From positions 153,507 through 217,506 of the forward strand of contig JBKQOZ010000063.1 of NCBI GenBank assembly GCA_052326345.1: DNA of 64,000 nucleotides, in the 5' to 3' direction. Of this stretch, positions 21,768-63,686 are shown one piece after another. Made by a program: the position numbers and the translations under genes. The notes beneath the pieces are model-generated. The model was given only the letters and a program-made list of their open reading frames with translations, searched no databases and was not told the DNA's origin. Origin of the DNA: Steroidobacteraceae bacterium (GTDB taxonomy: Bacteria; Pseudomonadota; Gammaproteobacteria; Steroidobacterales; Steroidobacteraceae). The first letter of the stretch is position 1, and each line of letters begins with the position of its first letter.

Positions 21768-21792
21768 TCCGGGCCCGAATCGCGGAGCAACC

Positions 21793-39391: not shown

Positions 39392-39402
39392 AGGTTCACG
39401 GC

Positions 39403-42479: not shown

Positions 42480-43376
42480 ATGCGGAACCTCAACGGCAAA
42501 GTAGCGTTCATCACCGGCGGCGGAAGCGGCGTCGGATATGGCATAGCCAAGTGCGCAGCCGAGGCGGGCATGAAGGTGGCGATTGCCGACGTCCGTGTAG
42601 ATCACCTCGAGCAGGCGCTCGGGCGGTTGCGTGCAGCCGGTGCGCATGCGCACGGCATGCTGGTGGACGTGGCCGATGCGGCGGCGGTGGAGCGCGCCGC
42701 AGAGGAGACCGTGCGCGAGTTCGGCAAGGTGCACCTCGTATGCAACAACGCGGGCGTCAGCATATTCGGCCCGATGGATGCGGCCACGATGGATGATTGG
42801 CGCTGGATCATGGGCGTGAACGTCGACGGCGTGATCAACGGCATCCAGTCGTTCATCCCGCGCCTCAAGGCGCACGGCGAAGGCGGCCACATCGTCAATA
42901 CCGCCTCGATGGCAGGCCTGCTGGTGGGTCCGGGCATGGGCCTGTATTCGGCGTCCAAATTTGCCGTGGTCGGTTTGACGACTTCGCTGCGCTACGATCT
43001 GGCGCCGCACGGCATCGGCGTGTCGGTACTGTGTCCAGGATTCGTGCGCAGCAATATTCACGAGGCGGTGAAAACGCGCCCCAAGCATCTGGCGCAGACC
43101 GGCTATCCCGTGACCGAAGAAGAAATGAAGCGTCTGGACGGGGTGCTGTCGGTGGGTATGGATCCCGTCGAGGTGGGCGCGCACGTCATCGCCGGCGTGC
43201 GCGAGAACCGGCCATACATATTTCCCCATGCGGAATTTCGCGATGAGCTGCGCGCGGTAATGGACGAACTGCTCGCCGCGCTTCCCGACCGGCCGCCCGA
43301 CCCCAAGCGCATGGCGGTCGAGGACTGGCGGCGCCAGCGCAAGGCGGACGCCGCAAAACTCATCAAGAATCTCTGA
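42480..43376 (+). CDS. SDR with C-terminal extension, LigD/LigL/LigN (C-alpha dehydrogenase)-like
   Basis: It has KVAFITGGGSGVGYG, ADVR, NNAGV..FGP, DDWRWIMGVNVDGVINGIQSFIPR, YSASKFAVVGL and GVSVLCPGFVRSNI. By eye this is close to my recollection of SYK-6 LigD. Confidence 0.8.
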   Translation: MRNLNGKVAFITGGGSGVGYGIAKCAAEAGMKVAIADVRVDHLEQALGRLRAAGAHAHGMLVDVADAAAVERAAEETVREFGKVHLVCNNAGVSIFGPMDAATMDDWRWIMGVNVDGVINGIQSFIPRLKAHGEGGHIVNTASMAGLLVGPGMGLYSASKFAVVGLTTSLRYDLAPHGIGVSVLCPGFVRSNIHEAVKTRPKHLAQTGYPVTEEEMKRLDGVLSVGMDPVEVGAHVIAGVRENRPYIFPHAEFRDELRAVMDELLAALPDRPPDPKRMAVEDWRRQRKADAAKLIKNL

Positions 43377-48538: not shown

Positions 48539-49015
48539 CTAGCGTACGACGAAATAATGGATCCGGTTGGCGCCGGGAATCTTTTCCGCCACGCCGACGA
48601 ACACATACTTGCTCATCCAGGCATGCGGACCTTCGGGTACGTCGAATTTCGGCGACACCCGCATGTAGTACTCGTCGTCGGCCACCGGCTCGTTGCGATT
48701 CATCTTCTCGGCAGCCTCGAGACTTTTCGCCCAGCGGAAGCCGCGGTTTTGCAGGTAGATGAGGGTGCCGTCCTCGGCTTCGAGCAGGTAGCGGGCGTCG
48801 AAATCGATGACGCCGTCGGGACGCACCAGCGGGAAGTCGCCGCCCGACATGGGGATCACCTTGCCGCGCAGCAGCGGCCCATCGATGGTGCCGCTGCCGG
48901 CGTAGACGGCCGCTCTCGTGAGGCCCATTGTCGTGGGCTTGATCCAGCGCGCACCGGTCAGCTCGATCGCGATGGTGAACGCGTATTCCAGTGTCGGATG
49001 AAAGGGGTGCTGCAT
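48539..49015 (-). CDS. DUF3237 (UPF0311) family protein
   Basis: It is a paralog of 21793-22293 (GPLLRGKVIPMSGGDFPLVRPDGVIDFDARYLLEAEDGTLIYLQNRG...YMRVSPKFDVPEGPHAWM). A GGAGGA Shine-Dalgarno precedes ATG 49015. Confidence 0.7.
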   Translation of the reverse strand: MQHPFHPTLEYAFTIAIELTGARWIKPTTMGLTRAAVYAGSGTIDGPLLRGKVIPMSGGDFPLVRPDGVIDFDARYLLEAEDGTLIYLQNRGFRWAKSLEAAEKMNRNEPVADDEYYMRVSPKFDVPEGPHAWMSKYVFVGVAEKIPGANRIHYFVVR

Positions 49016-49045
49016 GAGGGATCCTCCGTTGTTCGGTGGCAATCG

Positions 49046-50458
49046 CTATGCTTCCGGGCGTGCGGGCCGATAGACGGTGTCCAGGTCGGCGCGCAGCGCG
49101 CGGGCGGCCAGCAGGTAGTGCAGGCTGCCCGCCAGAAGCAGCAGGGCAATCGCGCCCATCGCAAAGCGAATGCCGTGCGCGGAGGCGGCTGCGCAGGCGT
49201 TGGCCAGGGCCGCGCCGGCCTCTCGCCGCGCCGCGCCGCCGGGACAGAGGGCCGAGAATTGACCCGCATCGAAGCTTTGTCGCGCCGCCAGATCGCTGAT
49301 GATGCCCACGATGGTCGGCCCGAGGCCGGCCCCGACCAGCCCGAAGACGATGGCGACGGTGAAGGCCGAGGAGGCGCGCATGGTTGCGTCCACCATGTTC
49401 TGGGCGATGGCCAGCGTCGGCGTGTAGTAAATGAACAGTGCGACATGGGCGAGCAGCAGCGCCGCCATCGTGCGGACCAGCGTAGGCTGAAACAATCCGA
49501 TCTCGAACAGCGGCATCGCGAGCGCGAGCGCGATGCAGGGTCCCCAGGCGTACCAGCGCCGGTCGCGCCTGACGGCCCAGTCGATGCCGAAGCCGCCGAT
49601 GACGAGACCGGAGCTCATCGCAACGACGGCCAATGATCCGAGCAAACGCCCGGCCTGCGCGGTACCCAAATGGAAGACGGCGACGAAATAGCGCGCGAAG
49701 AACTGCCCCATGCCGTTCATCGCAATCGCCGCGAACGCCGCGCCGGCGAGCACGTGCCGCATAGACGGTTTGGCGAACAGGAAGCGCATCGCCGCGCCGA
49801 TCGACGGGATCGCGCCGGTGGCCAATCCGCCGGCATCGAACGCGCCGCGCCGCGGTTCGCGCAGCGTGAACATCGCCAGCACGGCGGTCAGGAATCCCGG
49901 AATCGACAGTCCGATGAACCACGAGCGCCAATCCGCATGCTGCGCCGTCCAGCCGCCGATCGCAGCGCCGGCAAGCGCGCCCAAGGGCGCGCCCAGCCAC
50001 ACCACGGTGATGGCCGAGCCGCGTCTGCCCGCCGGATAATGGTCTCCGAGCAGCGATGAGACCGGCGGACCGACGGCACCGGCATCACCGATGCCCACGC
50101 CGATGCGACACAGCAGCAGGACCGTGAAATTGCGCGCCTGCGAGGCCAGAGCGCCGAAGCTCGAGAAGACGGCGATGGAGACCGCGATGATTCGTGCGCG
50201 GCTGCGCCGCTCCGCCAGGCGCGCGATCGGCAAGCCGAGGAGCGTGTAAAAGATCGCAAAGCCCAAGCCCTGAATCACGCCGAGCTGCGTGTCGCTCAAG
50301 CTCAAGGAGCGCTTGAGGGCCGGCGCAATCGCCGCCAGCCCCTGGCGATCGGCGAGGTTCAGCACGTTCATCAGCATCAGCATGAACAGCATCCACGCGC
50401 GGTAGCCGCGCGTGAACTCGTCCGTCGCAGCCGCCGGTGCCGCGCGGATCGCGCTCAC
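49046..50458 (-). CDS. MFS transporter
   Basis: The 470-aa protein has the N-terminus WMLFMLMLMNVLNLADRQGLAAIAPALKRSLSLSDTQLGVIQGLGFAIFYTLLGLPIARLAE. GTG 50458 overlaps the upstream stop (GTGA). Confidence 0.8.
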   Translation of the reverse strand: MSAIRAAPAAATDEFTRGYRAWMLFMLMLMNVLNLADRQGLAAIAPALKRSLSLSDTQLGVIQGLGFAIFYTLLGLPIARLAERRSRARIIAVSIAVFSSFGALASQARNFTVLLLCRIGVGIGDAGAVGPPVSSLLGDHYPAGRRGSAITVVWLGAPLGALAGAAIGGWTAQHADWRSWFIGLSIPGFLTAVLAMFTLREPRRGAFDAGGLATGAIPSIGAAMRFLFAKPSMRHVLAGAAFAAIAMNGMGQFFARYFVAVFHLGTAQAGRLLGSLAVVAMSSGLVIGGFGIDWAVRRDRRWYAWGPCIALALAMPLFEIGLFQPTLVRTMAALLLAHVALFIYYTPTLAIAQNMVDATMRASSAFTVAIVFGLVGAGLGPTIVGIISDLAARQSFDAGQFSALCPGGAARREAGAALANACAAASAHGIRFAMGAIALLLLAGSLHYLLAARALRADLDTVYRPARPEA

Positions 50459-51501
50459 AACCCGAACACGCGTTCGGCGTTGGTCTGGAAGAAGGCCTTC
50501 TTATCCGCATCGCTCATGCTCATCGCATCCTGCGCGGCGACTTCGCGAGCTTCGAACTGGTAGGGATAATCCATGGCATACATGATCCGGTCCGCACCCA
50601 GGGTCGATTTGCAGAACTGGATGGCCGGCTCCCATGCAACGCCGGAGAAGGTGACGTAGATGTTGCGCTTGAAGTAGCCGGAGATCGGCAGCTGCAGAGG
50701 CTTCAAGAACGCATAACGTCCCGAGCGGATGCCGGCGCCATGCATGTAGTCGAGGCGATACGCCCAGTACGGCAACGCCTCCCCGCCGTGTCCGACGATG
50801 AGCTTCAAATTCGGAAACCGATCGAACACGCCCATGACGATCAAGCGCAGCAGGTGAAGGCCGGTATCCACACCGAACCCATACACCGCGCCATCCAGTC
50901 CGCGCTCGAGCAGCGGGCCGATGAGGCCTTTGGAGGGTCCTTGCGGATGCAGATATACCGGCGTGCCAAGCGCTTCGGCCGCCTCGAAGATCGGCCAGTA
51001 TTTCTCCCCGTCGGTGTATTCGCCGCCGACATGGCCGTTGTGGATCACCGCCTTGAAGCCGAGCCGAGCCCCGCGCTCGATTTCCTTCGCGGACCACTCA
51101 GGATCCTGCGGGGCGATCGCGGTCATGCCGAGGAAGCGTGCAGGGTGCCTGCGGCAGGCGGCCGCGAGCTGATCGTTGGCGTCGCCGGCGAGCGCCTTGG
51201 CCTCGGCGGCGCTGAACACGTGTGCGCCCGGAGCCGTCAGGGCAATGATCGCCTTGTCGATGCCCGTCGAGTCCATATCGGCGAGGCGCCGCGCACCTAA
51301 ATCCTGAAGCCGATCGATGACGGAGGTGGCGCGCGCGGACGGTGACCCTGAGTAAAAGCCCCACAGACTGACAAAGCCCGGATCGTCGAAGCCGCTCGCT
51401 ATCAAGCGCTTATAGGCGCTCAGGACCTCGGTCGTGATGAAGGCCTCTTCGGTGGCGATGCGCAAATAGCCCTGGGCGCCGCCGGTCTTCAGTTCCGCCA
51501 T
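50455..51501 (-). CDS. Amidohydrolase-2 (ACMSD/LigW/gamma-resorcylate decarboxylase-type) non-oxidative aromatic decarboxylase-like
   Basis: It has IATEEAF near the N-terminus and then ..VYLHP.., ..GHGGEALPYW.. and ..MYAMDYPY... By eye this parallels resorcylate and 5-carboxyvanillate decarboxylases. An AGGAG Shine-Dalgarno is present. Confidence 0.8.
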   Translation of the reverse strand: MAELKTGGAQGYLRIATEEAFITTEVLSAYKRLIASGFDDPGFVSLWGFYSGSPSARATSVIDRLQDLGARRLADMDSTGIDKAIIALTAPGAHVFSAAEAKALAGDANDQLAAACRRHPARFLGMTAIAPQDPEWSAKEIERGARLGFKAVIHNGHVGGEYTDGEKYWPIFEAAEALGTPVYLHPQGPSKGLIGPLLERGLDGAVYGFGVDTGLHLLRLIVMGVFDRFPNLKLIVGHGGEALPYWAYRLDYMHGAGIRSGRYAFLKPLQLPISGYFKRNIYVTFSGVAWEPAIQFCKSTLGADRIMYAMDYPYQFEAREVAAQDAMSMSDADKKAFFQTNAERVFGL

Positions 51502-51534
51502 AGAATTCTCCTACGATGAACCGAATGCCGCCGT

Positions 51535-52980
51535 TCAGGCCTGATGAATCGACTTGAGCACCAGGCACGCTTCCAAGCCCTCCGGGCCGTCCTCGGACCC
51601 GTGCCCCGAATCCTTCACGCCGCCGAACGGAGAATCCGCGCCGCCGATCATCGTCGTGTTGATGCCGATCATGCCGCTTTCGATGGCATCGCCCAGCAGC
51701 AGAGCGCGCCTGCCATTCTCGGTAAAGCAATAGGCGGCAAGACCGTACGGCAGGCGATTGGCCTGTTCGACCGCCTCATCGAAGGTCTTGAAAGGGCGCA
51801 TGAGAGCAACGGGCCCGAATGGCTCTTCGTTCATCACGCGCGCCTCGAGCGGCACATCGGTGAGCACGGTGGGCCTGAAGAAGTAACCGTCGCGGTGTGT
51901 TCCGCCGCCGCGCTCTCCGCCGGCGGCGACGCGTGCGCCGGCCTTCAGCGCATCGCCGATGAAGGCCTCGATCGCGTCGGGGCGTCTTATGTTGGCCATC
52001 GGGCCCATCTGACTCGCGGCATCCAGGCCGTCGCCGACCTTCAGCTTGGCAGCCCGGACGGCGAACTCCTTGGCGAAGCGCTCGTAGATTCCTTGCTGCA
52101 CGTAGAACCGCGTCGGCGAGACGCAAACCTGGCCGGCATTGCGGAATTTGTGCGCCACCAACAGATCCAGCGCCTTCGACAGGTCGGCGTCCTCGAAAAT
52201 CAGCACCGGGCCGTGGCCGCCGAGTTCCATGGTGGTGCGCTGCGAGCCCTCCGCCGCGAGCTTCATCAGGTGCTTGCCGACGGCCACCGAGCCGGTAAAG
52301 CTCACTTTGCGGATGACGGGGGAGGCGAGCAGGTGGCGGGAGACTTGATCGGGCACGCCGAACACGCAGCTCGCCACGTCAGGCGGCAAACCGGCATCCA
52401 GCAGACAGTTGAGCACTTCGAGGGCGGACCGCGGCGCTTCCTCCGGCGGCTTGATGATGATGGAGCAGCCGGCGCCGATGGCGGCGCCCAATTTTCTCGC
52501 CGGATTGCCGATCGGAAAATTCCACGGGCAAAAGGCCGCGACCGGGCCGACGGGCTCCTTCATTACCCGCGACAGCGTGCCGGCCGGGCGCACGAGCACG
52601 CGCCCGTAGATTCGCTGCACCTCGCCGGCGTAAAAATCGAATAGTGCGGCCGCCATGTGCAGCTCGCCCCGGGCCTCCGGCAGGGTCTTTCCTTCCTCGA
52701 GCGTCGCGATGGTGGCGATCCTCTCGATGCGCTCGCGCATCAAGTGCGCCGCGCCCGCCAGCACGCGGCTTCGCTCTGCGGCGCTCGCCGCGCGCCAGCG
52801 CCGGAAGCCGCGCGCCGCCGTGTCCAGTGCACGGTCCAAATCAGCCGCTGTCGCCAGCGGCAATTCGGCGAGCGCCGCGCCGGTCGCCGGATTGACCACA
52901 CGGTGCGTGGCGCGGCCCGCAGCCCCCAGCCGCTCGCCGTCGATGAACATCTTCGGATCCGGGTCGTACGTGTGGGGCAT
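51535..52980 (-). CDS. NAD(P)-dependent aldehyde dehydrogenase (succinate-semialdehyde/2,5-dioxovalerate DH-like)
   Basis: It has CPWNFPIGN, TMELGGHGP, NAGQVCVSPTRF and EEPFGPV. It is 481 aa. Confidence 0.85.
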   Translation of the reverse strand: MPHTYDPDPKMFIDGERLGAAGRATHRVVNPATGAALAELPLATAADLDRALDTAARGFRRWRAASAAERSRVLAGAAHLMRERIERIATIATLEEGKTLPEARGELHMAAALFDFYAGEVQRIYGRVLVRPAGTLSRVMKEPVGPVAAFCPWNFPIGNPARKLGAAIGAGCSIIIKPPEEAPRSALEVLNCLLDAGLPPDVASCVFGVPDQVSRHLLASPVIRKVSFTGSVAVGKHLMKLAAEGSQRTTMELGGHGPVLIFEDADLSKALDLLVAHKFRNAGQVCVSPTRFYVQQGIYERFAKEFAVRAAKLKVGDGLDAASQMGPMANIRRPDAIEAFIGDALKAGARVAAGGERGGGTHRDGYFFRPTVLTDVPLEARVMNEEPFGPVALMRPFKTFDEAVEQANRLPYGLAAYCFTENGRRALLLGDAIESGMIGINTTMIGGADSPFGGVKDSGHGSEDGPEGLEACLVLKSIHQA

Positions 52981-52990
52981 ACGGCGAGAA

Positions 52991-53956
52991 TCAGCTGATG
53001 CCGGCCTTTTCGCGCCGATATTCGCGCGGCGTCACGTGATACTTGGCGCGAAACACACGGCCAAAGTGGGTCGGGCTGTTGAAGCCGTAGTCGAAGGCAA
53101 TCGCCGTCACCGTGCGGCCGCGCTGCGCTCCTGACTCGAGCGCGCGCGAACACGCCTCCAGCCGGCGGCGCAGAATGTAGCGCGCCACGGTCTCCTCTTG
53201 GTCCGAGAACAGATGATGCAGGTAGCGGGCGGTCATCCTGCACGCCTGCGCGATGCGCGTCGGCGTCAGGTCCGGATCGTTCAGGTGCGCCTCGATGTAG
53301 TTGATGATGCGAATCCGATGCGCGGTCGCCAGCGAGGAGCGATCGGCCAGCGCCTGCGGCAGATCCGCATACGCGGCGCCGATCAGGTCGAGGATCGCAA
53401 CCGCGATTCGGCTGCTGGTCTGTTCGTCGAGTCCCCGGTGGTACTCGTTCCAGTAATGGCGCAGGAGCTGGGACAGCAAGCCGCTGGCCCCGCGGCTGCC
53501 GGGCATCGGAATGGCGGCAAGGCACTCCGGGCATCCGATCTGGCGCCGCAGCGTCGCATTCGGTATTCCGAGCACCAGCATGCGATTTGCGCCCGTAAAC
53601 ACCATCTCGTAGCGGCGCGTGCTGTCGCACAGCGTAAAATCGCCGGCGCGCAGCAGCGATTCGCGCCCGTCCTGGCGCGAGATGCTTTCACCCTCCAATT
53701 GCAGGTGGAGAAAGAACATCGAGTTTTTGGTGCGCGCCACGTGCGAACGGGAATGCCGGACGATCTGGGCGTCCGAATACACTTCGGCGAGACTCATCTC
53801 GCCAATCGTGCCGCGTACGATGGAACCGTTGAATACGCGGATGTCCTCCGGCTCGGAGACGAGCGGGGAGAAACTTTCGCTCGCGCGGTCGTTCCAGAAC
53901 GCGAGCTTGCGGCGTGGGTCGAGACCGGCCGTACTGAACGACTCAAGTTGTGCCAT
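52991..53956 (-). CDS. AraC family transcriptional regulator
   Basis: It has a C-terminal double HTH (..TPTRIAQACRMTARYLHHLF...TVTAIAFDYGFNSPTHFGRVFRAKYHVTPREYR). A GGGGGAG Shine-Dalgarno sits 8 nt upstream of ATG 53956, and GTG 53965 is an alternative start. Confidence 0.8.
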   Translation of the reverse strand: MAQLESFSTAGLDPRRKLAFWNDRASESFSPLVSEPEDIRVFNGSIVRGTIGEMSLAEVYSDAQIVRHSRSHVARTKNSMFFLHLQLEGESISRQDGRESLLRAGDFTLCDSTRRYEMVFTGANRMLVLGIPNATLRRQIGCPECLAAIPMPGSRGASGLLSQLLRHYWNEYHRGLDEQTSSRIAVAILDLIGAAYADLPQALADRSSLATAHRIRIINYIEAHLNDPDLTPTRIAQACRMTARYLHHLFSDQEETVARYILRRRLEACSRALESGAQRGRTVTAIAFDYGFNSPTHFGRVFRAKYHVTPREYRREKAGIS

Positions 53957-54245
53957 TGACTCCACTCCCCCGTTTATTAGCGGGATTTCATCGTTATGCT
54001 GACGGCCGTCTGACCAGCCTGTCGCTTGTTGTGGAGATAGTTATACGAGACAATCATTTCGAGCAGCCAATTCTTTTGACTTATAGGTGATATAGACCAA
54101 CCTGAGTTGTTGCCGCCCGACAACAACCCTGCTGGATGCTCGATGCGGCCAAATCGATGTCACTGTGCGTCGAGTTTTCTGCGCCGCCTGCGGCAACATC
54201 GCAGTCGTGGGGACAACATAAGAGCCGCGACGCAGAGAGGGAGCC

Positions 54246-54722
54246 GTGAAAATGACGCCGCTCAGCGGCTACGTTGGCTATGCATTGCGCCGGGCCCAGG
54301 GCGCTATTTTCGCGGACTTCAACCAGACGCTCGCGCAGCTAAATCTGCGGCCAGGCCAATTCGCCGTTCTGTTGCTCATCGATCAGAATCCGGGGACCAG
54401 CCAGTCGAGCGTTTCGGCGGCGCTCGGTATCCAAAAGGCGAATTTTGTCGCAACCATCGCGGACCTGGAGCACCGGGGGCTGGTGCGGCGCCGCAAGTCC
54501 GACACCGATGGACGCACCTACTCGCTCAGCCTCACTCCCCGGGGCCGCTCGGTGCTGCAGCATGCCGCGGAGCTGCAATCACAGCACGAGGCGCGCGTCA
54601 TCGCGCACATCGGTCCCGACGGGCGGCTGCAACTGCTCAATTTGCTCGAACGTCTGGCGCGGCTGCCGGGTCCGCCGCCGCTTGACGGGGCCCCCGTTCG
54701 CGGCGCGCGCGCGCGACAGTGA
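54246..54722 (+). CDS. MarR family transcriptional regulator
   Basis: The winged HTH reads LRPGQFAVLLLIDQNPGTSQSSVSAALGIQKANFVATIADLEHRGLVRRRKSDTDGRTYSLSLTPRG. The start is GTG 54246 or ATG 54252. Confidence 0.8.
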   Translation: MKMTPLSGYVGYALRRAQGAIFADFNQTLAQLNLRPGQFAVLLLIDQNPGTSQSSVSAALGIQKANFVATIADLEHRGLVRRRKSDTDGRTYSLSLTPRGRSVLQHAAELQSQHEARVIAHIGPDGRLQLLNLLERLARLPGPPPLDGAPVRGARARQ

Positions 54723-56083
54723 GCCGGCCGCAGAACGCCATGTCGATCACGCTGGATCCGCGCGAAACCCTGTCTTTAAGTCCGATGAGTCCGATCCAGA
54801 TCGGGGCGGTTGCAATCACCGTGGGGCTGAATGCGCTCGACGGCTTCGATGTGCTCGCCATCAGCTTCGCCTCGCCCGGCATTGCGCGAGCGTGGGGCAT
54901 CGATCGTGCGGCACTGGGCTTTGTACTGTCCATGGAGCTGATCGGGATGGGGCTCGGATCCATTTCGCTGGGCGGCGTCGCGGACAGAATCGGGCGGCGG
55001 CGCACATTGCTCGGCTGCTTGGCGGTGATGACGCTCGGTATGGCGATGGCGACACGCGCGAAAGGCGTCTATGACCTCTCCGTCTGGCGTGTCTTCACGG
55101 GCTTCGGGATCGGCGGCATGCTGGCGGGCATCAATGCGGTGGCCGCGGAATTCTCGAACTCTCGCCGTCGCAGCCTCAACGTGTCGCTGATGGCGATCGG
55201 TTACCCGATCGGCGCGATCGTCGGCGGATCGATCGCCGCGCTGCTGCTCAAGCAGGCCGACTGGCGCGCGGTGTTCGGATTCGGCGCCGCAGCGACGGCG
55301 GCGTTCATTCCACTCGTGTACTGGCTGGTGCCCGAGTCGGTGTACTGGCTATGCCAACGGCAACCCCGGGGCGCGCTCGCCGACGTCAATCGCAGCTTGC
55401 GCCGCATGGGTCATGAGACCGTCGCGGCGCTGCCGCCGATCGGCGACGAGGTGCGCCGGCGCGCGGTGGCCGAGATCTTCAGTCCCCAATGGATCCGGGT
55501 GACCGTGCTGGTCACCTCGGCCTACTTCCTGCATATCACGGCGTTCTATTTCATTCTCAAGTGGGTGCCGAAGATCGTGGTCGACATGGGCTTTTCGCCG
55601 TCGGCGGCGGCGGGGGTGCTGGTTTGGGCCAACGTCGGCGGCGCGACGGGCGGCGCGGTGCTCGGGCTGCTGTCGCTGCGCCTCGGCTTGAAGCACCTGA
55701 CCATGGTCGTGCTGGTGGCATCCACGATCATGCTCGCGGTGTTCGGCCGCGGGCAGGCGAATCTTGCGCAGCTTTCGTTGATCTGCGCGATTACCGGCTT
55801 CTTCACGAATGCCGGGGTGGTCGGGCTTTATGGAATCCTGGCCCAGGTGTACCCCACGCAGCTGCGCGCCACGGGCACGGGTTTCGCCATCGGTGTTGGG
55901 CGCGCGGGCGCCATGCTCGCGCCGATCATCGCCGGTTACCTCTTCCACACGGGCTACGGTCTGCAGTTCGTCGCGATCGCGATGGGCGGCGGGTCGCTCA
56001 TCGCCGCAATCGCGCTCTGGCTGTTGCCGCCGTCAACGAGCGCGGCAAAGATCATGGACGAGGCGACCGCCACAGCCGGGTGA
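54719..56083 (+). CDS. MFS transporter, aromatic acid:H+ symporter (PcaK/BenK-like)
   Basis: It has LDGFDVLAISFASPGI and DRIGRRRTL, with 12 predicted TM segments. GTG 54719 overlaps the MarR stop, and ATG 54740 is an alternative start. Confidence 0.8.
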   Translation: MSRPQNAMSITLDPRETLSLSPMSPIQIGAVAITVGLNALDGFDVLAISFASPGIARAWGIDRAALGFVLSMELIGMGLGSISLGGVADRIGRRRTLLGCLAVMTLGMAMATRAKGVYDLSVWRVFTGFGIGGMLAGINAVAAEFSNSRRRSLNVSLMAIGYPIGAIVGGSIAALLLKQADWRAVFGFGAAATAAFIPLVYWLVPESVYWLCQRQPRGALADVNRSLRRMGHETVAALPPIGDEVRRRAVAEIFSPQWIRVTVLVTSAYFLHITAFYFILKWVPKIVVDMGFSPSAAAGVLVWANVGGATGGAVLGLLSLRLGLKHLTMVVLVASTIMLAVFGRGQANLAQLSLICAITGFFTNAGVVGLYGILAQVYPTQLRATGTGFAIGVGRAGAMLAPIIAGYLFHTGYGLQFVAIAMGGGSLIAAIALWLLPPSTSAAKIMDEATATAG

Positions 56084-56111: not shown

Positions 56112-56897
56112 TCACCCCCAGCGCGACGCTTCGATACCCGGCACGAACTGCCGCTCCGGCTGGGGCGTTCTCGCCGTGCGCAGCGCCTCGCGCACGGAAT
56201 CGCGCGCCGCGATCCGTCCGAGATATTCAAGGATACGCGGGGTCGACTGGGCATTGACGGATGCCGCCGCCAGATCCGGAAGCACGCAGAGCATCGGGTA
56301 TGCGTCGATGTCGGCAATCGAGAATGCAGGGCCGGCGAGCCACGGCCCAGCGCGAAGTGCGGCCTCGATGCGCGCCAGCGGCGCGCCGAGCCGCTCGTGC
56401 ACCGACTTCAAATAATCCGGCGTGTAGCTGCCGTTGCGCAGCGCGAGCCACCCGGTGCGCCGCTCGATGGGTTCGATCGCGGCGATGCGCCGGTCAACCA
56501 CTTCAGGATCCAGGGCCGCGAGGTGCGGCTGCAGGTATTTCGCGGCTCCCAGCACCGGCACGATCGAACCGAGCTGTGCTCCCAGATATTGACCCCAGGC
56601 GCGGGCGCGGTAGGCATCGTAGGGATCACCGGGCACCAGCGAATCTCCGGGCAGAGCCTCCGAGATGTACTCCAGCATGAAGAATGAGCTCGAGATGAGC
56701 GTCCCGTCATGCAGCAGCAGCGGCCCTTCACGCTCGAGCTGCAGACTGGATTCGAGGTCGCTCGGAAAGCCGTCCGCAAACTGCTCGAAGTTCGCGGCAT
56801 CGAAATATCGTAGGGTGTAGGGCGCATGCTTTTCAGCCAGCGCGATCAGCGGCTTTAAGAAAAGCGCGTTCGGCTCGGAGGTGTACAGTTCAAGCAC
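56112..56897 (-). CDS. Divergent LigF-family GST-like protein
   Basis: The N-terminus MLELYTSEPNALFLKPLIALAEK parallels the LigF-like N-termini, but Leu replaces the Ser of the ANS motif. GTG 56897 overlaps the upstream GST stop by 8 nt. WLAGPAFSIADI is conserved. Confidence 0.7.
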   Translation of the reverse strand: MLELYTSEPNALFLKPLIALAEKHAPYTLRYFDAANFEQFADGFPSDLESSLQLEREGPLLLHDGTLISSSFFMLEYISEALPGDSLVPGDPYDAYRARAWGQYLGAQLGSIVPVLGAAKYLQPHLAALDPEVVDRRIAAIEPIERRTGWLALRNGSYTPDYLKSVHERLGAPLARIEAALRAGPWLAGPAFSIADIDAYPMLCVLPDLAAASVNAQSTPRILEYLGRIAARDSVREALRTARTPQPERQFVPGIEASRWG

Positions 56898-57657
56898 TGG
56901 GCGTGCGCTCCAATATCTTGATCCGTGCGGCCATTTGAGTACGCCCCTTGGCCCAGGTTTCGCGCGCCGCGGGGCGCTCGTAGATCCGGCGCAGCCATTC
57001 CATGATATGCGGTGTCTTGGAGTCGTTGCAGTGTTCGGGCTGCGACAGCGGCAGTGCGTATCCCAGATTGAAGCCGTTGATGTCGCCGAGCGAGTATCGA
57101 TCGCCGGCGATCCAGGCCGAGCGGCTGAGATGGCGCTCCAGGGCTGCCGTGGCGAACAGCACGCGACGCTTCGACTCGGCGAGCTCCTCGGGCAAGAACT
57201 CGTTGAACAGAGCCTTGCGCCACGCGATGCGTCGCGACTCGAGCGGTATCCGATCGATCGCGGCGCGAAGCTCTTCGGGCGGGCGATGCCGTGCGGCGGG
57301 TCCGATGAAAATGCTCCAGCCGATCATGCTGAGCGACGGCGCGAAGTAGGCATCGAAGAAGCGCATCCACCAGCGCATGCGCCAGCGTGCCTTCGCATCC
57401 GCGGGCTTGAGCGGCGGCCCCGGAAACGCCTCGTCGATGTATTCCATCATCGGCGTCGATTCGGTGAGCACTCGCGAGCCATGCACCATGGCCGGAATCG
57501 TTCCATCCGGGTTGACGGCAAGATATGCGGGTTTGTGCTGGTCGAACTGCAGCAAATCGAGGTAGCGGCTTTCGTATGCCACGCCCTTCTCGGCAAGCGT
57601 CAGCATCGGCTTGCCGGAATTGGCGTTCGGTTCCCAGTGATAGAGGATGACGGCCAT
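56890..57657 (-). CDS. Glutathione S-transferase, LigF-type beta-etherase-like
   Basis: It has ILYHWEPNANSGKPMLTLAEKGV, FDQHKP.YL.VNPDGTIPAMVH..RVLTESTPMMEYIDEAFP, LKP...K.RW.MR.W and WIAGDRYSLGDI. Confidence 0.8.
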   Translation of the reverse strand: MAVILYHWEPNANSGKPMLTLAEKGVAYESRYLDLLQFDQHKPAYLAVNPDGTIPAMVHGSRVLTESTPMMEYIDEAFPGPPLKPADAKARWRMRWWMRFFDAYFAPSLSMIGWSIFIGPAARHRPPEELRAAIDRIPLESRRIAWRKALFNEFLPEELAESKRRVLFATAALERHLSRSAWIAGDRYSLGDINGFNLGYALPLSQPEHCNDSKTPHIMEWLRRIYERPAARETWAKGRTQMAARIKILERTPSA

Positions 57658-57797
57658 ACCGCCCGCTAGGCTGCACGCCGTGCGCGGCGCCGGCTCGACG
57701 GTCGGGGAAACGCAACGCGATGAGGCGCGAACACACCCGGCGCGCAGGGCTGATTGTTATGTACTATAATGAACTTTTCGCGGCGCCCGGCGGCCCC

Positions 57798-58271
57798 ATG
57801 AAGCTCAAGGCGAGACAAACCCACGCGGCATCCCTCGGTGACCTGGAGCAGCAGGTGGGCTACATGCTGCGGCGCGCGCAGCTTGCCGTGTTCGCGGACT
57901 TCATCGCCGGCCAGCGCGGCCCGGCGGCGCGGCCGGGTCAGTTTTCCGTGCTCGCCGTGGTCGGCCGCAATCCGGGCATCAGCCAATCGCAGCTGTGCGC
58001 AGCCCTCGGCATCAAGCGCGCCAACCTGGTGGCCGTCATCGATCGCTTCGAGTCGCTCGACCTTGTGCGCCGCGAGACATCCTCGACCGACCGTCGCGCC
58101 AACCGCCTGCAGCTCACCGGCGCCGGACAGCGCGCGCTGCAGAATGCGCTCGCGGCCCAGGCCGAGCACGAAGCGCGCATCACCGGATTGTTGGGCGCCG
58201 CCGGCAGGCAAGCACTGCTCAAGCACCTGGCGAAGCTGTGCGAACTGTCACCCGCTAGGAGGTTTCCATGA
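57798..58271 (+). CDS. MarR family transcriptional regulator (CouR-like context)
   Basis: The winged HTH reads ARPGQFSVLAVVGRNPGISQSQLCAALGIKRANLVAVIDRFESLDLVRRETSSTDRRANRLQLTGAG. Its stop overlaps the next ATG (ATGA). Confidence 0.8.
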   Translation: MKLKARQTHAASLGDLEQQVGYMLRRAQLAVFADFIAGQRGPAARPGQFSVLAVVGRNPGISQSQLCAALGIKRANLVAVIDRFESLDLVRRETSSTDRRANRLQLTGAGQRALQNALAAQAEHEARITGLLGAAGRQALLKHLAKLCELSPARRFP

Positions 58272-60400
58272 GTTCCCGAATCGTGACACTTGCGCTGGAC
58301 GGCGAAATTGCCGTCATCAGCGTCAACAACCCGCCGGTCAATACGATCAATGCCGCCGCCCGACAGGGCTTGTTCGCGGCGCTTGCGGATATCCGCTCGC
58401 GCGCCGGAATCTCGGCTGTGGTTCTGGTCTGCGAAGGCAGCACGTTCTTCTCTGGGGCGGACATCGGCGAATTCGCGGGGCCTCCGAAGGAGGCCGAATA
58501 TCGCGATCTTTTCCGCCAGCTGGAGCAGCTGCCGGTCCCGGTGGTCGCCGGGATGCACGGTGTGGCCATGGGCGGCGGCCTCGAGATCGCGCTCGCCTGC
58601 CATTACCGCGTGGCGGTGCCGGGCGCGCGCTTCGGACTTCCCGAGGTCACGCTCGGCATCATCCCCGGCGCCGGCGGAACTCAGCGCATGCCGCGGTTGA
58701 TCGGCGTCGAGAAGACTCTCGATCTGATACTCGCGGCGCGTCCGGTGGACGTGGCGACGGCTATTGCGCTCGGATTCGTCGATGCCGAGATCTCGGGCGA
58801 CGTGCGCAGCGGGACGATCGAATTCGCGCGGGCGCTGGTCCGCGACGCTGCCGGCCCGCGCCCCACGGCGCAGCGCCGCGTCGATCCGCAGACGGCGACG
58901 CCGGCGATCATCGAACGCCTGACGCAGCAGGCGAAAAGCCAATACCCTAACCGGCAGGCGGCCCTGACCGCCATCCAGGCGGTGAGCGCCTCCGCGACGC
59001 TGCCCTTCGAGGAGGGGCTGCTCTACGAGACCGAGCTCGCCAACGGCGCGAAGGCGACGGTTGAATCTAAGGCGCTGATACACGTGTTCTTCGCGGAGCG
59101 CGATACGCGCAAGGTGCCGGGGTTGCCTGCTGAGGCAAAGGCGCGCCCCATAGCGAGCGGCGGCGTGGTGGGCGCCGGCACCATGGGCGGCGGAATCGCA
59201 ATCTGCTTCGCCAACGCAAACCTGCCGGTCACCCTGCTCGACAGCACTCAAGAGGCGCTGGACCGGGGGTTGGCCGTGATCGGCTCGACCTACGACTCGA
59301 TGGTGAAGCGCGGAAGGCTGACGGCGGCGGACAAGGATCGGCGGATGGGGTTGATCCGCGGCACGCTCGACTATTCGGAGCTGGCGCAGGCCGATGTACT
59401 GATCGAGGCGGTATTCGAGAGCCTCGACCTCAAGCGCAAGATCTTCAAGACGCTGGACGAGGTGGCGCGGCCGGGCGCCGTGCTCGCTACGAATACCTCG
59501 ACCCTGGATGTCACCGAGATCGCGGCGGCGACGCGCCGTCCGCAAGACGTCATCGGGCTGCACTTCTTCTCGCCTGCGAACGTGATGCCCCTGCTCGAGG
59601 TGGTGCGCACCGACAGGACCGATCCCGCCGTCATCCGCACCGCGCTCGATCTCGCCAAGGCACTGCGCAAGACACCGGTGGTGGCGCGGGTCTGCTATGG
59701 CTTCATCGGCAATCGCATGATGGAGGGGTATGCGCGCGAGGCGCAGCGCATGGTCCTCGAGGGCGCCACGCCTCGCGAGGTCGACGACGCTCTCGAAGCG
59801 TGGGGCATGGCCATGGGCATCCTGGCGGTGTTCGACATGGCGGGAATCGAGGTGGGGGTCAACGTGCATCGCGCGAACGCGGACCGGTATCCGCCCGACC
59901 CGGCCTATTATCAGGCGGATTTTGCGCTGCACGCGGCCGGTCGCCTCGGCCAAAAGAACGGCAAGGGCTACTATCGATACGTGGCCGGGGATCGCACGCG
60001 TCACGACGATCCGGAAGCCCTCGACATCCTGCGCCGCACCGCGCAGCGCCTGAACATTCCGCAGCGACAGCACAGTCCGGAGGAGATCGTGGAGCGCTGC
60101 CTGTATCCGCTGATCAACGAGGGCATGCGCATCCTCGAGGAGGGGGTGGCCTCGCGCGCCGCCGATATCGATGTCGTGTGGTGCGCCGGCTACGGCTTTC
60201 CGCGCTACCGCGGCGGGCCGCTGTTCTATGCGGACACGATCGGTCTGAAGACCGTGCGCGACGGTATGCTCAAATACCGCGATCTGTTCGGTCCCATGCA
60301 CTGGCAGAGCGCACCGCTGCTCGACCGTCTGGCCGCCGAAGGGAGTACGCTCGAGCGTTGGCAAGCGGCGCGCAACCGCGCGCAAGGGGTGTCGAAATGA
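58268..60400 (+). CDS. Bifunctional enoyl-CoA hydratase / 3-hydroxyacyl-CoA dehydrogenase (FadB/FadJ-like)
   Basis: The N-terminal crotonase fold reads FFSGADIGEF...GGGLEIALACHYR. The central NAD domain reads VVGAGTMGGGIA, followed by the 3HCDH C-terminal domains. An AGGAGG Shine-Dalgarno is present. Confidence 0.9.
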   Translation: MSSRIVTLALDGEIAVISVNNPPVNTINAAARQGLFAALADIRSRAGISAVVLVCEGSTFFSGADIGEFAGPPKEAEYRDLFRQLEQLPVPVVAGMHGVAMGGGLEIALACHYRVAVPGARFGLPEVTLGIIPGAGGTQRMPRLIGVEKTLDLILAARPVDVATAIALGFVDAEISGDVRSGTIEFARALVRDAAGPRPTAQRRVDPQTATPAIIERLTQQAKSQYPNRQAALTAIQAVSASATLPFEEGLLYETELANGAKATVESKALIHVFFAERDTRKVPGLPAEAKARPIASGGVVGAGTMGGGIAICFANANLPVTLLDSTQEALDRGLAVIGSTYDSMVKRGRLTAADKDRRMGLIRGTLDYSELAQADVLIEAVFESLDLKRKIFKTLDEVARPGAVLATNTSTLDVTEIAAATRRPQDVIGLHFFSPANVMPLLEVVRTDRTDPAVIRTALDLAKALRKTPVVARVCYGFIGNRMMEGYAREAQRMVLEGATPREVDDALEAWGMAMGILAVFDMAGIEVGVNVHRANADRYPPDPAYYQADFALHAAGRLGQKNGKGYYRYVAGDRTRHDDPEALDILRRTAQRLNIPQRQHSPEEIVERCLYPLINEGMRILEEGVASRAADIDVVWCAGYGFPRYRGGPLFYADTIGLKTVRDGMLKYRDLFGPMHWQSAPLLDRLAAEGSTLERWQAARNRAQGVSK

Positions 60401-61263
60401 ACGTGAAGGATCTGATCGCGATCGACGTGCATACCCATGCGGAAGTCTCCTGCCGGCAGCCGGCGGATGAGGTGTGGCAGGCGTACGAGGATGCGGCGTC
60501 GAAGTATTTCAAGGCCGGCAAACGCCCCACCATTGCCGAGACGATCGCCTACTACCGGGAACGCAAGATCGGCCTCGTCATGTTCACGGTGGACTCGGAA
60601 CACGAACTGGGCTCGCGGCGCATCCCGAACGAGGAGGTGTGCGACGCGGCCCGTGAGAACAGCGATCTCATGATCGCCTTCGCGAGCATCGACCCGCACA
60701 AGGGCAAGATGGGCGTGCGCGAGGCCCGCCGCCTGATCAAGGAAGGCACGGTCAAGGGCTTCAAGTTCCATCCCACGGTCCAGGGCTTTTTCCCGAACGA
60801 CCGAATGGCCTATGGGTTGTACGAAGTGATCGCCGAGCACAAGCTGCCGGCCATATTCCACAGCGGGCATTCGGGCATCGGCACCGGGATGCCCGGCGGG
60901 GGCGGCGTGCGCTTGAAGTACTCGAATCCGATCCACCTCGATGATGTGGCGGCGGACTTCCCGGACATGAACATCATCATCGCGCACCCGTCGTGGCCCT
61001 GGCAGGACGAGGCCCTGTCGGTGTGCCTGCACAAGCCGAACGTGTACATCGATTTGTCCGGTTGGTCGCCGAAGTACTTTCCGCCGCAGCTGGTGCAATA
61101 CGCGAATACTCAGCTCAAGCGCAAGATGCTGTTCGGCTCGGATTTCCCGCTGATCGCACCCGACCGGTGGATCAAGGACTTCCGCGAGGCGGGATTCAGG
61201 CCCGAGGTTCACGAGCTGATCCTCAAGGACAACGCCGTCGCGCTGCTCGGTCTGGCGGGCTGA
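60397..61263 (+). CDS. Amidohydrolase superfamily protein (CouO-like candidate aryl-beta-ketoacyl-CoA hydrolase)
   Basis: The metal-binding HxH is near the N-terminus (IDVHTHAE), with later HSGHSG, IIAHPSWPW and GSDFP motifs. Its ATG overlaps the FadB-like stop (ATGA). Confidence 0.8.
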   Translation: MNVKDLIAIDVHTHAEVSCRQPADEVWQAYEDAASKYFKAGKRPTIAETIAYYRERKIGLVMFTVDSEHELGSRRIPNEEVCDAARENSDLMIAFASIDPHKGKMGVREARRLIKEGTVKGFKFHPTVQGFFPNDRMAYGLYEVIAEHKLPAIFHSGHSGIGTGMPGGGGVRLKYSNPIHLDDVAADFPDMNIIIAHPSWPWQDEALSVCLHKPNVYIDLSGWSPKYFPPQLVQYANTQLKRKMLFGSDFPLIAPDRWIKDFREAGFRPEVHELILKDNAVALLGLAG

Positions 61264-61335
61264 TCCGTTGCACTGATGGTCTATTTTCCCGTCCGTACTG
61301 TACGAGCGGCGATGGCGGCAAATCGGCCACATTGA

Positions 61336-62787
<1,452 letters not shown>

Positions 62788-62789
62788 GA

Positions 62790-63686
62790 TTGAACGCAGG
62801 AGAAGAGGAGGCCGGCGCCGCAGGCGTCGAGGCGGATCTTCATTACCTGGTGCCCGGTTCGCGCATCAACCGGCGGTACGTGGCGCCGGGCGCGGAGATG
62901 AATACCGGTCACTATGCGCCGCAGCGCGTGAAAATTCGCAATGCGCGGCCATTTCAGCACCGCCTGGGGTTCGACAGCCACGGATTCGTGCTCGTCCCGC
63001 ACTCGAGCCGCATCGCCGATTTCACCGACCGCGCGCAGGTCGATACGAACTACGCCGCCGAAGTGAGCGACGTGGTCAGGCGCGTGACCGGCGCCTCGCT
63101 CGTCTTGCCGATGGGCTGGATGATCCGCTCGTCCGGCGAGTTGCCGGCGGCGGCGCAGCAGCCGGCCGGCTACACCCATCAGGGCGGCACCCAGCCTCCG
63201 GCGAGCGACGTCCATGTGGACATGGCGCCGGACCGTGCGCAGCGCTTCGCGAAGATGCTCTACGAGAAGCACGTCCCCGGCGGCGCGGGGTTCCGGCGCT
63301 TCGTCGCCACGAGCTGCTGGCGCGCGTTCTCCGCGCCGCCGCAGGATTGGCCGCTCGCCGTCTGCGACGGCAGCAGCGTCGACCCGGCCGAGGGGGTCAA
63401 GAACACGATGGTCATCGTCGATGCGCTGCCTGGGAGCGACGCGATTCCCGATGAGCTGCCCGGGGAGGATGGCGTGCCGGCCGCCTCCGTGTTTCACTTC
63501 AGCCCGAAGCATCGCTGGTGGTATTACCCGAACATGACGCGCGACGAGGTGCTGCTGCTGAAGTTTCACGATTCCGACCATTCGACGGCGTGGCGCACGC
63601 CGCACACCTCGTTCCACGATCCGACCTACCCCGACGCCCGCATCCGCCGCAGCATCGAGTTTCGCACCGTGGCGTACTTCGAGTAG
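62790..63686 (+). CDS. CmcJ/NvfI-family oxidoreductase-like protein
   Basis: The ~298-aa protein has the pattern L.Y........Y...... I.NAR......L...GF.LV.H.S...DF.D........Y..E........G, ...HVD, and a C-terminal ..PH.SF.DP. This matches my recollection of this family. The TTG 62790 start lies 2 nt after the ligM stop and is uncertain. Confidence 0.55.
   Translation: MNAGEEEAGAAGVEADLHYLVPGSRINRRYVAPGAEMNTGHYAPQRVKIRNARPFQHRLGFDSHGFVLVPHSSRIADFTDRAQVDTNYAAEVSDVVRRVTGASLVLPMGWMIRSSGELPAAAQQPAGYTHQGGTQPPASDVHVDMAPDRAQRFAKMLYEKHVPGGAGFRRFVATSCWRAFSAPPQDWPLAVCDGSSVDPAEGVKNTMVIVDALPGSDAIPDELPGEDGVPAASVFHFSPKHRWWYYPNMTRDEVLLLKFHDSDHSTAWRTPHTSFHDPTYPDARIRRSIEFRTVAYFE

Follow-up and report, generated by a model that had tools for sequence, protein, structure and literature searches.

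Can a single gene unit shorten the side chain of lignin-derived hydroxycinnamates and then demethylate the vanillate so formed? The question is raised by a locus in a 64,000-nucleotide stretch of DNA from a Steroidobacteraceae bacterium (GenBank assembly GCA_052326345.1, contig JBKQOZ010000063.1, positions 153,507 to 217,506 of the forward strand), referred to here as the window. Five consecutive genes near its end encode a MarR-type regulator, a FadB-like protein, an amidohydrolase, a LigM protein and a CmcJ/NvfI-like protein. An earlier interpretation made from the letters and open reading frames (the sequence-only reading) proposed that the unit joins beta-oxidative, CoA-dependent side-chain shortening, as in the Rhodococcus cou pathway, to tetrahydrofolate-dependent O-demethylation, with the cou hydratase and dehydrogenase fused in one protein. 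Our analysis favors a closely similar picture, in which the unit would be a module under repressor control that converts lignin-derived aryl-C3-CoA thioesters through vanillate to protocatechuate; we give this reading a probability of about 0.72.

The strongest support for the sequence-only reading comes from gene neighborhoods. Neighbors of the amidohydrolase gene were classified by tblastn in the closest 80 species-representative genomes carrying an ortholog (74-94% identity). A FadB-like gene (at least 63% identity) lies directly upstream on the same strand in 21 of the 80 loci, and these genomes span Gamma-, Beta- and Alphaproteobacteria. Within 10 kb of the amidohydrolase gene, a Rhizobium-type separate hydratase is found in 23/80 loci, a short-chain dehydrogenase/reductase (SDR) in 14/80 and a feruloyl-CoA-synthase-type ligase in 35/80, whereas FadB together with a separate hydratase or SDR occurs in none (0/80). 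The fused and the separate enzymes are mutually exclusive beside orthologous amidohydrolases and feruloyl-CoA-synthase-type ligases, as expected if FadB occupies the place that a separate hydratase and dehydrogenase hold in other bacteria. The ligase flanks the FadB-amidohydrolase pair in 6 of the 80 loci and lies directly beside it in five metagenome contigs as well; NCBIfam assigns these flanking ligases and the Rhizobium feruloyl-CoA synthase to one subfamily, and in one Woeseiaceae genome (L025) the order is MarR-FadB-amidohydrolase-ligase-LigM.

Conversely, metagenome contigs were fetched with FadB, and the informative ones were counted. The amidohydrolase gene lies directly downstream in all 36 contigs with a FadB of 75% identity or more to that of the window, in 17 of 25 at 60-75% identity and in none of five below 60% (53/66 overall). 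The adjacency exceeds chance, and because it tracks FadB identity in this way, the FadB clade appears to be dedicated to the amidohydrolase.

The 710-aa protein itself aligns over its full length with Cupriavidus necator FadB' (PDB 6IUM; E 4e-183) and with the rat enzyme MFE1 (E 1e-143). Alignment with 6IUM and 2X58 (rat peroxisomal MFE1) shows that the two crotonase glutamates (GGGLE and LPEV), the NAD-binding GxGxxG motif (GAGTMGGG) and the dehydrogenase His and Glu motifs HFFSP and LLEV are all retained. With the full architecture present and the catalytic residues of both halves conserved, the proposed fusion of hydratase and dehydrogenase holds. Because the protein scores below the NCBIfam cut-offs for both FadJ (476 bits; cut-off 869) and FadB (458 bits; cut-off 870), it was placed in the monomeric multifunctional-enzyme group and not among subunits of the fatty-acid complex. 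By these sequence features it is an MFE1/FadB'-type enoyl-CoA hydratase/(S)-3-hydroxyacyl-CoA dehydrogenase, and its predicted reaction in this setting is the conversion of feruloyl- or p-coumaroyl-CoA to the corresponding aryl-beta-ketopropionyl-CoA. The plant homolog cinnamoyl-CoA hydratase-dehydrogenase carries out the same two steps in benzoate biosynthesis.

The 288-aa amidohydrolase matches PF04909 (E 3.5e-45, residues 9-286), and its metal ligands H12, H14, H155, H197 and D249 do not vary when it is aligned with family members from three cluster types (mean column identity 78%). No NCBIfam model names the protein, and its one PDB relative is the uncharacterized Bordetella protein 3IRS; thousands of metagenome proteins are 84-93% identical to it. 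Plasmid-borne homologs occupy three kinds of aromatic cluster. A Rhizobium copy (L004, 63% identical) lies in an hca-type cluster with the layout of Agrobacterium Atu1415-1422, a Rhodococcus copy (L005, 59%) shows the cou layout, its companions being an AMP ligase, an SDR and a MaoC dehydratase, and a Pseudomonas putida copy (L006, 79%) is the last gene of an acetovanillone-type (hpe/acv) cluster. The L006 cluster also contains genes for an acetoacetyl-CoA synthetase (AACS)-like ligase, a kinase-like protein, biotin carboxylase parts and a haloacid dehalogenase-type phosphatase; clusters of its type were found with an amidohydrolase ortholog in L006, L086, L017 and L027, the L006 and L086 copies being 79-80% identical to the protein of the window. 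The role reported for the hydrolase across these pathways is the conversion of aryl-beta-ketopropionyl-CoA to the aromatic acid (PMC4737184, PMC7797058, PMC9618137). We predict that the window protein is an aryl-beta-ketopropionyl-CoA hydrolase of the CouO/Atu1421/HpeF type, which would cleave vanilloylacetyl-CoA to vanillate and acetyl-CoA. As regards the resemblance to CouO proposed in the sequence-only reading, the protein is 59% identical to the Rhodococcus protein in a cou-type cluster; the R. opacus plasmid homolog lies outside the 90% cluster of CouO (WP_011597356.1). The amidohydrolase is also unusually conserved, with 74-94% identity across Gamma-, Beta- and Alphaproteobacteria and copies 80-85% identical in bins labeled Solirubrobacteraceae and Acidobacteriota (L056, L086), which suggests strong constraint together with horizontal transfer, or mis-binning.

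The regulator points to the same class of substrates. The best structural match of the MarR protein is Rhodopseudomonas palustris CouR (PDB 6C28; E 3.3e-25, 92.5 bits, residues 9-147), with the next-best structure seventeen orders of magnitude behind (E 1.4e-08), and Rhodococcus jostii RHA1 CouR (5CYV) is a weak match (E 6.8e-05). Pfam MarR_2 is recognized at 1.5e-14, and the protein is 39% identical to the MarR adjoining the hydrolase gene in the Rhizobium hca-type cluster. The binding site of R. palustris CouR, as taken from primer sequences of a biosensor study, is TTGTTATACTCTATAAC (PMC9594313 supplement), and a putative CouR-type operator of the window MarR, TTGTTATGTACTATAA, matches both of its half-sites. 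This element lies 29 bp 5' of the MarR start, overlaps a TATAAT hexamer and falls within a 140-bp region common to MarR and the divergent glutathione S-transferase (GST) genes. Even when one mismatch is tolerated, the 64 kb contain a single copy of the pattern TTGTTATNNNNTATAA, and 0/100 shuffles contain it. The element is kept as ATGTTATGATATATAAT in L008 and L091, where the flanks carry indels and the MarR proteins are approximately 73% identical. The top-ranking structure and the match to a published operator thus bear out the comparison of this MarR with CouR. CouR proteins leave DNA with p-coumaroyl- or feruloyl-CoA and not with the free acids (PMC4737184); by analogy, p-hydroxycinnamoyl-CoA is the predicted effector here. 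An inverted-repeat finder applied to the promoter region returned G+C-rich palindromes only and missed the AT-rich site. A DesR-like, vanillate-responsive reading was considered, and the DesR inverted repeat GTTTGTGTAACATAC (PMC6888825) was not seen on reading the sequence upstream of MarR or ligM. An upstream MarR start at ATG 57720 was rejected, as relatives carry indels there and gene calls favor 57798.

Control of the module appears to vary among lineages. At approximately 7700-7875 of L009, between the GST pair and FadB, a short stretch similar to the mid-part of the MarR gene is all that is left; MarR appears to have decayed there, and the operon might be constitutive. In L029, L034, L042 and L054 the FadB-amidohydrolase pair has no MarR upstream, and an AT-rich sequence upstream of FadB, ATATTGACTAAATCGTACAAGACTGACTAAATAGTCA, is shared exactly by L042 and L054 and has similar counterparts in L029 and L034, so that the control region attached to the pair appears to differ from lineage to lineage. 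Between the GST and MarR genes of the window, a 44-bp non-coding block at 57692-57735 (GGCTCGACGG...GCGATGAGGCG.GAAC) is kept among relatives despite surrounding indels and could be a control element of the divergent GST genes.

The fourth gene is securely named. Its product scores 807 bits with the LigM model NF047885 (cut-off 580), compared with 663 for the DesA model (cut-off 800) and 82 for GcvT, and it matches the LigM structures 5TL4 and 5X1I at E of approximately 8e-220 over residues 2-463. The equivalog score and the structures thus agree with its initial naming as LigM, and we are confident in its assignment as a tetrahydrofolate-dependent vanillate/3-O-methylgallate O-demethylase. 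The wider claim, that the unit continues directly into vanillate O-demethylation, stands with two refinements: the placement of LigM is lineage-specific, and the link to tetrahydrofolate-dependent demethylation already exists in Agrobacterium fabrum Atu1420 (PMC7797058). LigM is found within 10 kb of the amidohydrolase gene in 6/80 genomes, and at this site it is a lineage-specific addition, with nothing, other genes or a CoA ligase at the position in near relatives.

The fifth product belongs, on its sequence, to the CmcJ/NvfI family of Fe(II)/2-oxoglutarate oxygenases (NF041278, 268 bits; cut-off 80). Its nearest solved relatives are fungal 2-oxoglutarate dioxygenases (7EUS, 1e-24; NvfI, 1.7e-17), and the iron triad and the 2-oxoglutarate arginine are conserved, H142, D144, H272, R286 and S288 being invariant in 12 homologs. 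In L091, an ortholog 82% identical takes the equivalent position before a TonB receptor gene, with LigM absent. No association with LigM was seen in seven neighborhoods of CmcJ-like homologs (53-82% identical), where GSTs were the only recurring neighbors; among the neighborhoods examined, the homologs occur in varied settings and never beside LigM outside the window's lineage. PF27522 homologs adjoin GST genes in L090 (6304-8897), L091 (7896-10897), L094 (2295-7272) and L088 (8001-13009), sometimes as tandem paralogs, and in L090 they also stand with two Meth_synt_2 genes, an SDR and a MarR, which hints at a functional link of these oxygenases to glutathione-dependent aromatic catabolism. A tentative and rather doubtful proposal is that the CmcJ-like protein serves lignin-aromatic catabolism, for example as an oxidative aryl O-demethylase or hydroxylase for substrates beyond the reach of LigM, among which 4-hydroxybenzoate from p-coumarate, syringyl units or guaiacol might be counted, or by taking part in beta-etherase glutathione-conjugate chemistry. 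This role would account for a place kept with or without LigM and for the recurrence beside GSTs in unrelated bacteria.

The physical layout agrees with a single unit (Table 1). The ATGA start/stop overlaps at 58268 and 60397 on which the sequence-only reading relied are present, the five genes lie on one strand, and the sequence has the 123 nt before LigM and the 2 nt from the LigM stop to the CmcJ start that it reported. Gene calls made independently in L095-L097, three closely related assemblies, agree on all five products and on their lengths. Because these calls leave 10 nt between LigM and CmcJ, the close spacing of these two genes is not conserved. The spacer ahead of LigM carries a Shine-Dalgarno-like GGGGAGGGG before the LigM ATG, and a terminator scan of 61264-61386 returned no terminator-like site; an internal promoter may lie there. 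An 11-bp palindrome in the spacer, CGTACTGTACG (61294-61304), is by estimate no more than chance expectation. The stem-loop beyond CmcJ has 11 pairs, 10 of them G-C, with a T-run on the minus strand only, and is likely the end of the unit. Megablast of the whole unit against plasmids gave a sole match, to 250 bp of FadB on a Novosphingobium plasmid.

Table 1. Coordinates, strand and supporting evidence for the five-gene unit, its putative signals, the adjoining GST pair and the candidate feeder operon (18676-27194) in the window
Feature	Position	Strand	Evidence or remark
MarR gene	57798-58271	+	ORF table; Pfam MarR_2 and MarR
FadB-like gene, 710 aa	58268-60400	+	ORF table; Pfam ECH_1 + 3HCDH_N + 3HCDH
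Amidohydro_2 gene, 288 aa	60397-61263	+	ORF table; Pfam PF04909
Spacer between amidohydrolase and LigM genes, 123 nt	61264-61386	+	Sequence
LigM gene, 466 aa	61387-62787	+	Pfam GCV_T; NCBIfam equivalog NF047885
CmcJ/NvfI-like gene, 298 aa, TTG start	62790-63686	+	NF041278 CmcJ_NvfI_EfuI; Pfam PF27522 'YDMC'
Putative CouR-type operator TTGTTATGTACTATAA	57754-57769	+	Both half-sites match RpCouR site
G+C-rich stem-loop	63699-63728	.	Between convergent CmcJ-like and TonB-dependent receptor genes; terminator scan
Two LigF-like GST genes, overlap 8 nt	56112-56897 and 56890-57657	-	Divergent from MarR promoter region
Aldehyde dehydrogenase	18676-20112	+	Candidate feeder operon; Pfam/NCBIfam
GMC oxidoreductase	20037-21767	+	Feeder operon; 'choline dehydrogenase' type
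DUF3237	21793-22293	+	Feeder operon
GMC oxidoreductase	22290-23918	+	Feeder operon; 'choline dehydrogenase' type
MFS transporter	23911-25200	+	Feeder operon
AACS-like CoA ligase	25203-27194	+	Last gene of feeder operon; passes acetoacetate-CoA ligase models
GMC, glucose-methanol-choline; MFS, major facilitator superfamily; ORF, open reading frame

The surroundings suggest a wider role in lignin degradation. Both divergent GSTs have LigF (4XT0) as their best PDB match (1.1e-20 and 1.3e-43), aligned along the entire protein and with other GSTs far behind, and they probably form a beta-etherase pair; the arrangement of their genes recalls the heterodimeric beta-etherase BaeAB. The GST pair adjoins the amidohydrolase gene in L007-L010, L091 and many metagenome contigs, with or without MarR-FadB, and the synteny backbone in Steroidobacteraceae consists of an AraC-controlled block, a second MarR (accompanied in some cases by an aromatic-acid transporter), the GST pair and the amidohydrolase. 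The window, L008, L091 and L009 have MarR-FadB (with MarR decayed in the last); the closest relatives L007 and L010, whose amidohydrolases are 92-94% identical, lack it and show the order GST-GST-amidohydrolase. The region 3' of the amidohydrolase gene holds LigM-CmcJ in the window, a paralogous oxygenase-GST-MarR-CmcJ arrangement in L091 and nothing recognizable in L007-L010.

Within the window, the block at 48539-53965 (minus strand), syntenic in all Steroidobacteraceae relatives examined, encodes an AraC regulator, an aldehyde dehydrogenase, a second Amidohydro_2 protein (50455-51501; 348 aa, not named by any NCBIfam model), an MFS transporter and DUF3237, a domain that occurs twice in the window, both times inside an aromatic-looking operon. 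It is followed by a translationally coupled pair at 54246-56083 (plus strand), a second MarR and an MFS transporter of the aromatic-acid/H+ symporter family, possibly an uptake system for the substrates of the neighboring unit. Over 106 residues, this second MarR shares 42% identity with the HcaR-like MarR of Rhizobium, and it has a sub-threshold match to the Saro_0803 family.

The candidate feeder operon lies farther upstream in the window. HpvZ and HpvY, GMC enzymes of the 'choline dehydrogenase' type, oxidize beta-hydroxypropiovanillone, a monomer from beta-aryl-ether cleavage, and aldehyde dehydrogenases then yield vanilloyl-acetate (bioRxiv 10.1101/2024.03.22.586352). The AACS-like protein at the end of the operon is 62-64% identical to the ligases of acetovanillone-type clusters (64% to that of P. 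putida) and is a homolog of the aryl-beta-ketopropionate ligases (HpeE-like), probably activating vanilloyl-acetate, and not a hydroxycinnamate ligase. By analogy we propose that the operon leads from beta-hydroxypropiovanillone through vanilloyl-acetate to its CoA ester and could thereby feed the five-gene unit. A MetE-like Meth_synt_2 gene (17508-18605, plus strand; NF005085, 448 bits, cut-off 313) heads the same-strand run to 27194, and one may speculate that its product is a sink for the 5-methyl-tetrahydrofolate formed by LigM. A Nu-class (YfcG-like) GST gene, divergent from an SDR gene (41591-43376), adjoins a pyrroloquinoline quinone alcohol dehydrogenase with a cytochrome c domain (39256-41544); in beta-aryl-ether cleavage, the GST suits the glutathione-lyase step and the SDR the C-alpha-dehydrogenase step. 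A gene of the RPE65-family carotenoid/lignostilbene-type dioxygenases (14089-15552, minus strand; Pfam E 1e-129), accompanied by a LysR-type regulator (15624-17087, minus strand), suggests that stilbene-type lignin dimers are also handled here. The window further holds a third GMC enzyme and five aldehyde dehydrogenases in all. Given these GST, SDR, GMC, aldehyde dehydrogenase and lignostilbene-type genes, the unit sits in a catabolic island for lignin-derived aromatics (beta-aryl-ether dimers), a setting that the sequence-only reading did not mention.

We propose the following course of events. A CouR-type MarR would bind a TTGTTAT-N4-TATAA site just 5' of its own gene and be released by p-hydroxycinnamoyl-CoA. 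The FadB'/MFE1-type enzyme would hydrate feruloyl- or p-coumaroyl-CoA and oxidize the 3-hydroxy intermediate with NAD+ to aryl-beta-ketopropionyl-CoA (vanilloylacetyl-CoA), standing in, as its domains, catalytic residues and neighborhood substitution suggest, for the hydratase and dehydrogenase that the Rhodococcus cou and Agrobacterium Atu1415/1417 systems encode as two proteins. The amidohydrolase, judged by family and context, would hydrolyze the beta-keto thioester to vanillate (or 4-hydroxybenzoate) and acetyl-CoA, as is reported for CouO, Atu1421 and HpeF. LigM, for which the sequence evidence is strong, would move the methyl group of vanillate to tetrahydrofolate and leave protocatechuate, while the CmcJ-like Fe/2-oxoglutarate oxygenase would act on some aromatic substrate. 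The amidohydrolase would thus be a meeting point, receiving hydroxycinnamoyl-CoA by way of FadB and vanilloyl-acetate by way of the AACS-like ligase 33 kb upstream, the latter route, through the GMC oxidase/aldehyde dehydrogenase operon, lying downstream of the neighboring LigF-like beta-etherases.

Several observations weigh against this reading. The main weakness is the entry step. As the sequence-only reading noted, no CoA ligase is adjacent and the 64 kb yielded no ANL-type ligase other than the AACS-like one; a feruloyl-CoA-synthase-, CouL- or FerA-type ligase was not found in the window by comparison with Rhizobium homologs or by Pfam on large ORFs, nor was a hydroxycinnamate CoA ligase found within 10 kb past the window end in near-identical contigs. 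Hydroxycinnamate entry must therefore rely on a gene elsewhere in the genome; in relatives, the hydroxycinnamate ligase occupies the position of LigM. Furthermore, the closest characterized FadB relatives use aliphatic acyl-CoAs, the CmcJ-like gene has no assigned pathway step, and a sigma-70 consensus scan returned no promoter. The comparison with CouO, Atu1421 and HpeF is indirect, made through homologs in clusters of the same type, and approximately 24/80 amidohydrolase orthologs are accompanied by only a regulator or by no marker genes, so that the family may have wider uses. A hidden FerA-type (ADP-forming) ligase was considered and set aside, as a Pfam scan of large ORFs revealed no such enzyme.

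The missing hydroxycinnamate ligase is the main reason to ask whether the unit serves the beta-aryl-ether lower pathway only, the amidohydrolase taking vanilloylacetyl-CoA from the AACS-like ligase (with vanilloyl-acetate derived from beta-hydroxypropiovanillone), LigM following, and FadB having a side role, for example on 3-hydroxy-3-arylpropionyl-CoA. The LigF-like GST pair is the conserved neighbor, even in L007 and L010 without MarR-FadB, an AACS-type ligase gene lies directly 3' of FadB-amidohydrolase in L033 and L146, and the Nu-class GST, SDR, GMC and aldehyde dehydrogenase genes of the window fit a full beta-O-4 route. Vanilloylacetyl-CoA, however, requires neither hydration nor oxidation, which would leave FadB without work although it is strictly coupled to the hydrolase in all contigs of the highest identity class; regulator and putative operator are both CouR-like, a type that senses hydroxycinnamoyl-CoA, and in other Steroidobacteraceae (L015, L023, L035) a feruloyl-CoA-synthase-type ligase follows the pair. 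We regard this restriction as unlikely, but still worth keeping in view.

Much less probable is a generic aliphatic beta-oxidation or ketone-body module with LigM adjacent by coincidence. FadJ and FadB are indeed the best NCBIfam matches, though below cut-off, FadB' is the closest structure, the distant ligase passes acetoacetate-CoA ligase models, and some amidohydrolase orthologs have no aromatic genes nearby; but the unit has neither thiolase nor acyl-CoA dehydrogenase, its regulator is CouR-like, annotated hydroxycinnamate and acetovanillone clusters contain members of the amidohydrolase family, and in many lineages the pair is found next to feruloyl-CoA-synthase-type ligases, LigM and LigF-like GSTs. 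We think it very improbable indeed that the amidohydrolase is instead a decarboxylase, lactonase or hydratase of the LigW/LigI/LigJ kind acting on a ring-derived acid. PF04909 includes such enzymes, and neither NCBIfam nor the single, uncharacterized PDB relative supplies a name; against this stand the 59-80% identity to proteins at the hydrolase position of three known pathway types, the ATGA coupling to a CoA-ester-processing enzyme, with the same adjacency in dozens of genomes, and the separate Amidohydro_2 gene in the AraC-controlled block, which is available for such roles.

If the repressor-controlled aryl-C3-CoA pathway is confirmed, it would be a third gene solution for beta-oxidative hydroxycinnamate deacetylation, in which an MFE1-type enzyme works with a hydrolase instead of a thiolase. 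The FadB-amidohydrolase pair is widespread in soil Proteobacteria, and most soil and sediment metagenome contigs retrieved with FadB carry it. One hydrolase would then be the point where hydroxycinnamate, beta-aryl-ether and, in other bacteria, acetovanillone catabolism converge. The AACS-like ligase and CouO-like hydrolase are candidates for the conversion of vanilloyl-acetate to vanillate, a step reported as unresolved in Novosphingobium aromaticivorans, which is without VceA and VceB (bioRxiv 10.1101/2024.03.22.586352). For lignin valorization, two enzymes and a CouR-type repressor/operator pair could make a small parts set, and an uncharacterized oxygenase family would be tied to lignin-catabolic loci.

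Every chemical step proposed here has a characterized precedent; the novelty lies in the gene arrangement, and the advance is incremental. A single MFE1-type hydratase/dehydrogenase coupled to the hydrolase, here beside beta-etherase genes, appears undescribed, and an incomplete literature search found no paper describing a fused-enzyme hydroxycinnamate pathway and no characterized example.

In R. jostii RHA1, the cou genes encode the ligase CouL, CouM, CouN, the amidohydrolase CouO and the MarR regulator CouR, with CouO, which belongs to the amidohydrolase superfamily, performing the last deacetylation step (PMC4737184). Common to that system and, as predicted, to the window are CoA-dependent beta-oxidative deacetylation of p-hydroxycinnamates, an amidohydrolase at the last step and a MarR repressor that senses p-hydroxycinnamoyl-CoA, whereas the window has one MFE1/FadB'-type protein in place of a MaoC-type hydratase and an SDR, no ligase in the unit, and a MarR much closer to R. 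palustris CouR than to the RHA1 protein. The Agrobacterium fabrum SpG8-1b region Atu1415-Atu1422 includes the SDR dehydrogenase Atu1415, the feruloyl-CoA synthase Atu1416, the hydratase Atu1417, Atu1418 for folate recycling, the GntR regulator Atu1419, the LigM-type Atu1420 and the MarR repressor HcaR (PMC7797058). There the same predicted chemistry, under a MarR repressor, is already joined to a tetrahydrofolate-dependent LigM-type demethylase; the window unit differs in having no separate hydratase, SDR, feruloyl-CoA synthase, GntR or Atu1418 and in possessing the CmcJ-like oxygenase and flanking GSTs. When Rhizobium homologs of the hydratase, SDR and ligase were compared with the window, the hydratase gave a weak domain match inside FadB only, and there was no ligase match anywhere.

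The end steps of acetovanillone/4-hydroxyacetophenone degradation in Rhodococcus rhodochrous GD02 are carried out by the AACS-like ligase HpeE and the CouO-like hydrolase HpeF, and vanillate demethylation is presumed to proceed via VanAB, not LigM (PMC9618137). Activation of an aryl-beta-ketopropionate by an AACS-like ligase and cleavage by a CouO-type hydrolase to vanillate would be common to both systems, but the window lacks genes for a kinase, biotin carboxylase or phosphatase, and its ligase gene lies 33 kb from that of the hydrolase; its beta-keto acid would therefore come from oxidation of beta-hydroxypropiovanillone and not from carboxylation of acetovanillone. In the sphingomonads, a dehydrogenase and an Atu1421-like hydrolase take part in hydroxycinnamate catabolism (N. 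aromaticivorans SARO_RS14535/SARO_RS14545, SYK-6 SLG_RS06215/SLG_RS06210; bioRxiv 10.1101/160747). Compared by their description, the SYK-6 pair is clustered with ligM, as here, but in both organisms the dehydrogenase is described as a homolog of Atu1415, a protein encoded apart from the hydratase, and not as a fused enzyme. Finally, the window protein is like C. necator FadB' and rat peroxisomal MFE1 in length, domain order and catalytic residues; the characterized bacterial and animal members use aliphatic acyl-CoAs and work with thiolases, whereas the clade of the window protein (at least 63% identity) is coupled to a hydrolase.

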